This document shows, piece after piece, positions 1,732 through 2,730 of a stretch of 7,673 nucleotides of DNA. The number at the start of each line of letters is the position of its first letter. Position 1 is the stretch's first letter. The stretch is taken from the IMG/VR virus record IMGVR_UViG_2534682234_000016, positions 1 through 7,673 of that record, one strand, 5' to 3'. Both the position numbers and the translations under genes were made by a program. The notes beneath the pieces were generated by a model. It was not told the DNA's origin and searched no databases. It saw only the letters and a program-made list of their open reading frames with translations. This DNA comes from a virus (lineage: Duplodnaviria; Heunggongvirae; Uroviricota; Caudoviricetes).

Positions 1732-2421
1732 ATGAATACCCAATATTTACAGTATGTCCGCGAGCAACTCATTGTGGCTACCGCTGATTTGAGCGGAGCA
1801 ACGAAAGGACAGCTTGAAGCCTGGCTGGAGCATGCACAATTTGATACTGGTACATACAAACGAAAGAAGCCGCGCATTCTGGATGAGGTAACTGGCAGGA
1901 TGATTACGCTGGATAATCCGCCGATTTCCGGTAAGCAGTCGTACGCAAAAGGTTCATCCATTGCACTGGTCAGCCAGGTTGAGTTCTCAACCTCGTCATG
2001 GCGCCGCGCGGTTCTGTCTCTCGAAGAACATCAGAAAGCGTGGTTGCTGTGGAGTTACAGCGAAAGTGTTCGCTGGGAACATCAGGTCACCATAACGCAG
2101 TGGGCATGGAGCGAGTTTAAGACTCTGTTGGGTACCAGGAAAATTGCAGGTAAGACACTGGAACGTTTGAAGAAGTTGATCTGGCTGGCGGCACAGGATG
2201 TGAAGAACGAGCTGGCAGGGCGTAAGACCTATGAATACCAGGAGCTGGCATCACTGGTGGGAGTGACATCAAAAAACTGGTCTGAGACATTTACTGAACG
2301 CTGGGTTGCAATGAAACACATTTTTCTACAGCTTGATAGCCAAGCTTTATTGCTTTTAACGAAAACACGTTCAAAACAAAAGACCACATTTTCACAGCAA
2401 GATATTGCAAAACTGGATTAA
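1732..2421 (+). CDS. Putative late-gene antiterminator (Q-like, not lambda-Q type); 229 aa from ATG 1732
   Basis: The track ORF starts at 1624, but the ATG at 1732 has a good RBS (AAAGGAG at 1718-1724, 7-nt spacer), and the upstream extension reads like non-coding sequence. It lies directly upstream of a promoter/terminator-like spacer and the holin gene, which is the canonical Q position. It carries an HTH-like segment (YEYQELASLVGVTSKNWSETF). No resemblance to lambda Q as I remember it, so the family assignment is inference from synteny and size. Confidence 0.5.
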   Translation: MNTQYLQYVREQLIVATADLSGATKGQLEAWLEHAQFDTGTYKRKKPRILDEVTGRMITLDNPPISGKQSYAKGSSIALVSQVEFSTSSWRRAVLSLEEHQKAWLLWSYSESVRWEHQVTITQWAWSEFKTLLGTRKIAGKTLERLKKLIWLAAQDVKNELAGRKTYEYQELASLVGVTSKNWSETFTERWVAMKHIFLQLDSQALLLLTKTRSKQKTTFSQQDIAKLD

Positions 2422-2433
2422 AAATCATATATT
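2406..2433 (+). promoter_or_regulatory. Candidate sigma70 late promoter (pR'-like)
   Basis: TTGCAA (2406-2411), 16-nt spacer, TATATT (2428-2433), overlapping the end of the Q-like ORF. An alternative weaker candidate is TTGCCA 2453-2458 with AGTAAT 2476-2481. Neither is verified. Confidence 0.25.
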
Positions 2434-2488
2434 TTATGTAAATCTGATATTTTGCCAATGTTGTACGCACTGGCAGTAATCCAAATTC

Positions 2489-2525
2489 AAGCCCGAGGTT
2501 TAAAGCCTTGGGCTTTTCTGTTTCT
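2489..2525 (+). terminator. Promoter-proximal hairpin with interrupted U-tract (possible pause/terminator or Q-utilisation structure)
   Basis: 10-bp stem aagcccgagg (2489-2498) pairing with ccttgggctt (2506-2515), including one G-U pair; 7-nt loop; followed by ttctgtttct. Confidence 0.35.
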
Positions 2526-2602
2526 GAACGGTGAGTAGCCTTCCAACCTACCCCAGCCAGGGGGTCTTCAGCTGTTGAGTTGATATTGCTTAGCCCTCTG
2601 TT

Positions 2603-2628
2603 GCCAGCTACATGCTGGCTTTTTTATT
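2603..2628 (+). terminator. Intrinsic terminator, tR'-like, upstream of the lysis genes
   Basis: Perfect 6-bp GC-rich stem gccagc (2603-2608) / gctggc (2614-2619), loop tacat, then ttttttatt (2620-2628). Its position between the Q-like gene and the holin matches lambda tR', which ends the short 6S transcript. Confidence 0.55.
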
Positions 2629-2730
2629 CCAGGCTTGTGGGGAGCATCAACTCCGTGCTTTGTCGTTAAATTACCCCGTGAGCCTGATTTCTGACATTTA
2701 ACGTCCCGGCCTTTTGTCGGCGGCGAAACA

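Follow-up and report, generated by a model that had tools for sequence, protein, structure and literature searches.

The late promoter of phage 82 is a textbook model of sigma-dependent pausing and Q antitermination. Transcripts from this promoter (82 pR') start with AAA, and its -10-like pause element begins at +9, is nearer to TATAAT than that of lambda and has an extended -10. A GCC discriminator is found at +15-17 and the bases from +18 to +25 are AT-rich, with pausing at +25/+26 and a paused RNA whose 3' end is the U at +25 (PMC5001585, Bird, Strobel and Roberts 2016). Q82 can act in vitro on a segment spanning no more than -31 to +30, in which a functional QBE and the pause element are both present (PMC4914094). 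PMC7547250, citing Schechtman 1980, mentions a short RNA made from the late promoter of phage 82.

Several other late leaders are related to this system in design. Lambda likewise combines a constitutive late promoter with a sigma-dependent proximal pause and the loading of Q, and its lysogens make a short terminated RNA. Tandem late terminators were reportedly described in lambda by Luk and Szybalski in 1983. In Stx phages, the short RNA StxS arises from a constitutive pR' with termination at tR', and it is a precedent for a terminated pR' RNA that binds Hfq and acts in trans (PMC7547250). The 74-nt IsrJ RNA of Gifsy-1 has been detected experimentally and affects the translocation of SPI-1 effectors in Salmonella (PMC2330248); lysogens without lytic transcription express it at a high level under all conditions (PMC7067206).

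Here we describe the spacer between a Q-like gene and a holin gene in a 7,673-nt stretch of viral DNA (positions 1 to 7,673 of IMG/VR record IMGVR_UViG_2534682234_000016; hereafter, the window). This spacer was originally predicted to mirror lambda pR'-qut-tR'. The lambda-like logic is supported, and its precise form is the phage 82 version, as indicated by a nearly identical Q protein and five features of pR'. Based on comparative sequence analysis, the spacer very probably controls the late genes of a lambdoid prophage of the phage 82 type, and the phage 82-type switch is an already known and experimentally dissected system. For the window locus, we infer the transcription start, pausing, termination efficiencies and Q dependence.

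Genomic setting of the spacer

The spacer lies between the Q-like gene and the holin gene, as the original prediction had it:

1732..2421, plus strand: Q antiterminator gene of the phage 82 family, 229 aa (PF06323, E = 1.4e-94)
2743..3048, plus strand: holin gene, the first late (lysis) gene under the predicted switch (PF16083, E = 7.5e-22; RefSeq annotation)

At the protein level, Q shares 98% identity with its phage 82 counterpart (X92588), 87% with that of phage 434 and 70% with Gifsy-1 AntQ, and RefSeq genomes label the gene as antitermination protein Q. Holin, lysozyme and Rz are encoded downstream of the spacer on the same strand. The gene order in the window is integrase (minus strand), excisionase (minus strand), Q, holin, lysozyme, Rz/Rz1, bor (minus strand), ybcV, ybcW, ylcI and nohD. 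The element is a defective lambdoid prophage of E. coli, of the DLP12 type. No tRNA genes were detected in the window, unlike many Q82 loci and Stx phages. No credible small ORF was found in 2420-2745, where the only ATG ORF (2612-2701) was rejected, as it begins within the second hairpin described below and has no ribosome-binding site.

The spacer region is 100% identical to many O157:H7 chromosomes, and the 2300-2800 segment was found in 909 of 5426 complete E. coli genomes. Strain 2017C-4109 has a fuller copy, in which ~5.8 kb of replication and nin genes take the place of the window interval 1510-1640; the junction seen in the window was found in a single complete genome, that of strain F3113. 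The repressor, N and the early promoters are absent from both the window prophage and the 2017C-4109 copy. The defective state of the prophage, with ~5.8 kb replaced and these functions missing, counts against a working switch, since Q may never be made in it.

Predicted late promoter and pause element

The spacer was predicted to contain a -35/-10 pair, and TTGCAA-17-TATATT is present at 2405-2433. This is a predicted sigma-70 promoter that overlaps the 3' end of Q, and its -35 element is contained in the final codons of the gene. We placed +1 at A2440, seven bases past the -10 hexamer, by fit to the published 82 pR' features, which yielded the following elements:

2405..2433, plus strand: late promoter pR' of the 82 type, with TTGCAA at 2405-2410, a 17-nt spacer and TATATT at 2428-2433 (9/12 consensus matches)
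2409..2447, plus strand: interval (-31 to +8) expected to hold the Q82 binding element
2445..2456, plus strand: predicted sigma-dependent pause element, with TG at +6/+7, TATTTT at +9 to +14 and GCC at +15 to +17 (matches PMC5001585)
2464..2465, plus strand: sigma-70-dependent pause positions +25 (U) and +26, predicted by homology

All five published features of 82 pR' are present in the window when +1 is 2440. The corresponding bases are AAA at 2440-2442, TG at 2445-2446, TATTTT at 2448-2453 and GCC at 2454-2456, and the AT-rich stretch from +18 to +25 is AATGTTGT (2457-2464), in which the T at 2464 is the U at +25. The pause motif TGNTATNNTGCC has one match in the window, compared with 0.10 expected by chance. 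The identity of the window pR' and first terminator with those of phage 82 rests on these five textual features and not on an alignment, because the only phage 82 record found, X92588, ends at the Q stop codon. A full-text literature search with sequence strings gave no match, and the papers searched did not yield the sequence of the Q82 binding element.

The window and phage 82 thus have in common the Q protein, a promoter that overlaps the end of Q and five features of the initial transcribed region, with an intrinsic terminator further on, and they differ in that the prophage carrying the predicted switch of the window is defective, of the DLP12 type and devoid of early genes. Lambda is more distant. 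Its Q is of a different family and shows no sequence similarity to that of the window, and lambda pauses at +16/17 with the -10-like element at +1-6, whereas the window pause element is at +9-14. A PF03589 Q and an element at +1-6 characterise the lambda-type pR'/6S class, and the window has neither. Phage phi80 also has a lambda-type Q (PF03589), with the binding site between -35 and -10, and is without the 82-type pause element, although it resembles the window further downstream. StxS differs from the window in its Q/pR' type and in being processed by RNase E from a longer leader.

A survey of one genome per species recovered 60 loci with Q82-family genes in many Enterobacteriaceae genera, among them Kluyvera, Citrobacter, Enterobacter, Klebsiella, Leclercia and Raoultella. 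At nearly all of these ~60 loci a -35 TTGCAA lies in the final Q codons and is followed by a -10 TATATT or CATATT, and across them the pause element T(C/T)TGATAT is at a constant distance from the Q stop codon. Conservation among Q82-family loci is high in the block surrounding the -10 element and +1.

A CII-site-like TTGC-N6-TTGC on the minus strand (2397-2410) was also considered, and was rejected as not above chance (3 found, 2.2 expected). The counterpart of this site is annotated as paQ in phage 434.

Terminators and the predicted leader RNA

The region 2200-2900 contains six terminator-like sites, against 0.8 +/- 0.9 in shuffles. Two hairpins downstream of the promoter and the RNA that would end at the first of them were defined as follows:

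2489..2525, plus strand: t1 (hairpin 1), first intrinsic terminator (tR' equivalent), a 12-bp stem and UUUUCUGUUUCU, supported by folding and conservation
2603..2628, plus strand: t2 (hairpin 2), second intrinsic terminator, a 6-bp GC stem and UUUUUUAUU, supported by folding and covariation
2440..2522, plus strand: predicted terminated leader RNA of ~81-83 nt, beginning AAA, 6S-like and IsrJ-like (+1 by published features)
2452..2476, plus strand: small hairpin A in the leader (+13 to +37), role uncertain (dG -8.7, z = -1.56)

RNA folding, named with the original prediction as a check, found both hairpins to be far better than shuffles. Hairpin 1 lies where it had been placed and has the interrupted U-tract that was described; its stem is 12 bp and not 10. 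The stem is AAGCCCGAGGUU-UAA-AGCCUUGGGCUU at 2489-2515 (+50 to +76), with the tail TTCTGTTTCT (UUCUGUUUCU) extending to 2525. It has a dG of -18.4 kcal/mol (z = -4.56), and none of 200 shuffles folds as well. As the U-tract is interrupted (UUUUCUG), termination efficiency may be modest. Hairpin 2 matches its earlier description as a perfect GC-rich stem, with GCCAGC-UACAU-GCUGGC at 2603-2619 and then TTTTTTATT at 2620-2628. Its dG is -11.9 kcal/mol (z = -4.08; 1 of 200 shuffles), and it is situated ~105 nt past t1. Bidirectional terminators were rejected, as no T-tract accompanies either hairpin on the minus strand.

From +1 = 2440, the transcript lengths calculated from the sequence are ~81-83 nt at t1 and ~187-189 nt at t2, close to the ~90 and ~190 nt proposed before. 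The shorter of these is to be compared with the ~194 nt of lambda 6S RNA (~82 nt predicted in the window). The leader as a whole folds better than shuffles (z = -4.04). Hairpin A is uncertain as a real element of the leader. Its mean z was -1.36 over 44 unique sequences in the shuffle test, it exists in at least four sequence versions among related leaders and it is missing in the short 434-type leaders. When 29 leaders aligned with MAFFT were folded by RNAalifold, the terminator was the sole structure recovered, and hairpin A was not.

A canonical intrinsic terminator is present downstream of the promoter in 61 of 62 Q82 loci, at +24 to +115 and mostly at +45 to +80. The stems belong to a few interchangeable types, that is, the phi80 type seen in the window (AAGCCCGAGGTT...), an IsrJ type (AGCCTCGCCATCGTGCGGGGCT) and a 434 type (AACCCGCC...GCGGGTT). 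In the case of phi80 itself, the annotated late terminator is 94% identical to t1, and a second putative terminator followed by TTTTTTATTCC lies ahead of the holin gene, as in the window. Many Q82 loci have tRNAs or cargo genes between t1 and the lysis genes. A second terminator ahead of the first long ORF was found in 19 of 59 Q82 loci, and many of these are of the GC-stem-plus-TTTTTTAT type.

The lysis-cassette leader and the origin of t2

Comparisons along the spacer revealed a break in homology at the end of t1. Similarity to Klebsiella phages with Q82-type genes stops at ~2517-2523, and the following ~2526-2593 has no relative outside this prophage lineage. From ~2594 on, the sequence is homologous to DNA just upstream of the holin genes of mEp237, UPF_BP1 and others; the Q of these phages is of other types, and a cargo gene sometimes precedes the region. 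Alignment of 13 such lysis-cassette leaders defined a module with a fixed order, namely a conserved upstream box, the t2 hairpin, a nearly invariant TTTTTTATT and a long-range helix:

2630..2686, plus strand: helix 3, conserved long-range stem directly 3' of t2 (dG -22.8, z = -3.26)

In helix 3, 2630-2642 pair with 2674-2686, and an inner stem is formed by 2643-2647 and 2655-2659. The t2 stem shows compensatory substitutions in the 13 leaders, and for helix 3 these were seen in 8 of 11 pairs (RNAalifold and pair counts). By pair counting over the module, 91% of cells are paired, compared with 25-45% for slid partners, and both sides have changed in 12 of 17 pairs. The covariation score is 0.51 for the module and 0.05-0.10 for slid partners, and none of 500 shuffles reached the observed values. 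The helix 3 module was detected in 43 phage records, in which it is almost never annotated.

Judged from this covariation and distribution, t2 is a genuine conserved terminator of the lysis-cassette leader and a module separate from Q, and it is predicted to serve as a second Q-sensitive barrier. An origin of t2 as the remnant terminator of a cargo ('moron') gene formerly located between pR' and the lysis cassette is possible, though we think it rather less probable. In mEp237 and UPF_BP1 the homologous terminator comes right after an inserted gene and before the holin, as would be expected of such a remnant, and both the cargo found in many Q82 loci and the lineage-specific spacer at 2526-2593 fit the same history. 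Against it, the upstream box, t2 and helix 3 are kept with or without cargo, and phi80 and the window have none. The module also stands at a fixed ~120 nt before the holin gene, suggesting that it is part of the lysis-cassette leader. Either origin would lead to the same present-day effect, a second barrier that is sensitive to Q.

As for helix 3, one idea is that it may be an RNase III site, because the lambda late leader has such sites, as indicated in PMC7547250 by way of its reference 49.

Relationship of the leader to IsrJ

The window contains a full-length match to the Rfam family isrJ (RF01393) at 2437-2516, with a score of 30.4 bits (E = 0.015). As this is below Rfam's own gathering cutoff of 37 bits, the window RNA is a relative and not a member of IsrJ. 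The family passes the cutoff in 13 of 20 Q82 loci tested, each match starting 16 nt past the Q stop codon, and the window match begins at the same distance. The only other Rfam family at E <= 1 was mir-578, a spurious match.

IsrJ of Gifsy-1 and the window leader have the same promoter and the same first ~16 transcribed nt (UGUAAAUCUGAUAU), and they are alike in their two-hairpin layout and in length (74 nt and ~82 nt). They differ in the sequences of hairpin A and of the terminator stem. The genes upstream differ as well, as isrK-orf45-anrP lies between antQ and the promoter in Gifsy-1, while in the window Q is directly upstream. In Gifsy-1, TTGCAAAACTGGATTAA, which corresponds to the last codons of an 82-type Q, precedes the IsrJ promoter right after the anrP stop codon, and the isrK-orf45-anrP module appears to have been inserted between Gifsy-1 antQ and its 82-type late promoter. 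The constant high expression of IsrJ is the outcome expected of a constitutive, terminated pR'. Our literature search found no paper stating that IsrJ is an 82-type late leader, and the Hfq-CLIP paper on O157 (PMC4104026) does not discuss the window locus.

These similarities bear on whether the leader is mainly a trans-acting, Hfq-binding sRNA analogous to IsrJ or StxS, with an effect on the host and with termination control being secondary. We consider this unlikely. The isrJ match is correctly placed, the above-cutoff matches of other Q82 loci fall at the same position, and IsrJ and StxS indicate that an RNA of this kind can alter effector translocation or be a functional sRNA. The region is also retained in ~909 of 5426 complete E. 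coli genomes despite a prophage without early genes, and hairpin A is weak but recurrent. However, the match is sub-threshold, and the leader diverges from IsrJ in its middle and 3' portions, which means that a seed region, if there is one, would not be the same. Leader bodies and terminators have been swapped freely among relatives, down to the short 434-type leaders that have no hairpin A, which argues against strong selection on one RNA sequence, and the strong conservation among O157 genomes could be a mere result of clonality. An sRNA role is compatible with late-gene control by termination and does not exclude it.

Role of the first hairpin

The original prediction held that hairpin 1 sits so close to the start that it may be a pause or antiterminator-loading structure, and this part did not survive the comparison. 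By its position and its relatives, hairpin 1 is the terminator of the leader and not a Q-loading structure, because nearly all Q82-family loci have a terminator at this position, with a second one in only about one third. That hairpin 1 acts in pausing or Q loading while hairpin 2 is the real terminator of a basal RNA of ~188 nt is very improbable: the U-tract of hairpin 1 is broken after four U, whereas hairpin 2 has a perfect U6 and is strongly conserved with its T-tract and with covariation, but the sigma-dependent pause element lies at +9 to +14 and the pause at +25, the latter 25 nt ahead of the start of hairpin 1, Q82 loading needs no more than the -31 to +30 segment (PMC4914094), phi80 shares the hairpin as its late terminator with a lambda-type Q, so that it is not specific to a Q family, the 74-nt IsrJ RNA ends at the homologous hairpin (PMC2330248), and hairpin 2 travels with the lysis module and not with Q.

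Proposed switch and its implications

In the switch that we propose for the window, RNA polymerase would initiate constitutively at pR' (+1 = A2440), and sigma-70 would re-bind TGaTATTTT (+6 to +14), such that the complex pauses at +25/+26. Without Q, the polymerase would resume and terminate at t1 (2489-2525), releasing an RNA of ~80 nt. Transcripts that escape t1 would be halted ~105 nt further on at t2 (2603-2628), and the holin-lysozyme-Rz cassette would therefore stay silent. With Q82 present, Q would bind its DNA site around the promoter and load onto the paused complex, and the Q-modified, termination-resistant polymerase would read through both t1 and t2, allowing the lysis and packaging genes to be expressed.

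As the short terminated RNA of phage 82 has, on the record cited in PMC7547250, been known since 1980, there is little new in the switch itself. The spacer, with pR', the pause element and two terminators, can now be annotated in ~900 complete E. coli genomes in which it is blank. The reading of IsrJ as an 82-type late leader and the covarying helix of the lysis leader are modestly new side observations. By the first, Rfam's IsrJ, catalogued as a virulence sRNA from Salmonella islands, is the leader RNA that 82-type late promoters produce. Its constitutive expression and its regulation are then to be read differently, and the IsrJ promoter is suggested as the place where Gifsy-1 AntQ acts.

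More tentatively, and with low confidence, the ~80-nt leader may be an IsrJ-class trans-acting sRNA of E. coli, and helix 3 an undescribed cis-acting RNA element. If so, an IsrJ-class sRNA would be made constitutively from 82-type promoters in about one sixth of complete E. coli genomes and would target host genes in the manner of IsrJ and StxS, and helix 3 would determine how strongly lambdoid lysis cassettes are expressed, perhaps by being processed by RNase III or by stabilising the RNA. An unannotated, covarying helix between t2 and the holin gene in many lambdoid phages could matter for the timing of lysis.

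RNA structures around the late region

Directly downstream of t2, the second terminator before the holin gene, the transcript is predicted to form a conserved helix by long-range pairing. The small hairpin A lies inside the leader, the RNA predicted to run from the 82-type late promoter pR' to the first terminator.

Structural features of the window
2630-2686: long-range RNA helix directly 3' of t2, 2630-2642 paired with 2674-2686
2452-2476 (+13 to +37): small hairpin A, inside the leader
2702-2725: stem-loop just 5' of the holin start codon
6152-6214: long inverted repeat, scored as mir-578 (Rfam)

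Covariation of the t2-proximal helix was strong among the 13 lysis-cassette leaders compared, and in its loop the sequence is conserved, following a ...GTGCTTTGTCGTTAAAT pattern. The helix is contained in 43 phage records, almost all of which lack an annotation for it, and an Rfam search of the window returned no family for it. Hairpin A occurs in four sequence versions among the related leaders, is missing from the short 434-type leaders, and had weak statistical support. At the site of the stem-loop before the holin gene, related leaders carry CUCCCGC...GCGAGGAG, overlapping the ribosome-binding site; this stem-loop resembles the lambda S structure by which that gene's dual starts are controlled. 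The mir-578 match was spurious: it falls on a long inverted repeat, which is ordinary, since its sequence matches almost exactly the lambda cosB region immediately 5' of Nu1 (nohD here).

Q gene and opposing minus-strand sites

Upstream of Q, ~5.8 kb of a fuller copy of the prophage, comprising the replication genes, ren, emrE, the recombinase, the nin genes, rusA and most of ylcG, is replaced in the window by a 131-nt segment (1510-1640). The resulting junction was present in only one of the 5426 complete E. coli genomes, that of O157:H7 strain F3113. No known phage promoter is left upstream of the window's Q gene.

Minus-strand sites near pR' and the 3' end of Q
2458-2431, minus strand: promoter-like site TTGGCA-16-TAAAAT, 10/12 consensus matches
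2397-2410, minus strand: CII-site-like TTGCAATATCTTGC, fitting the consensus TTGY-N6-TTGY

The promoter-like site outscores pR' in consensus matches and faces the 3' end of Q; among the sequences compared, its -35 element is peculiar to 82-type leader sequence, and IsrJ-type relatives do not conserve it. Phage 434 has paQ annotated at the place equivalent to the CII-site-like sequence. The CII-site pattern was not above chance in the window (3 found versus 2.2 expected), and the prophage of the window lacks a cII gene.

IsrJ and the Gifsy-1 antirepressor unit

IsrJ-related sites and Rfam matches in the compared loci
L003 (Gifsy-1, NC_010392), 2484-2608: IsrJ-related site
L007 and L014-L041, ~2206-2285: IsrJ-related sites
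L003, 1685-1737: c4-a1b1, Gifsy-1 IsrK region
L003, 1800-1883: C4 antisense RNA, Gifsy-1 IsrK region

In 13 of the 20 loci searched, IsrJ as defined in Rfam starts 16 nt past the stop codon of a Q82-family gene, so this family is the leader RNA made from 82-type late promoters. The final codons of an 82-type Q (TTGCAAAACTGGATTAA) precede the IsrJ promoter of Gifsy-1, directly after anrP, which points to an insertion of isrK-orf45-anrP that separated antQ from its late promoter. A literature search found no paper stating the link between IsrJ and 82-type late leaders.

The Gifsy-1 IsrK region (L003, 1685-1883) also matches two Rfam families. An analogy with P4 SeqA/CI was already drawn by the authors of the isrK-orf45-anrP unit, and the c4-a1b1 and C4 antisense RNA matches make that unit look like an antisense-controlled antirepressor module of the P1/P4 type.
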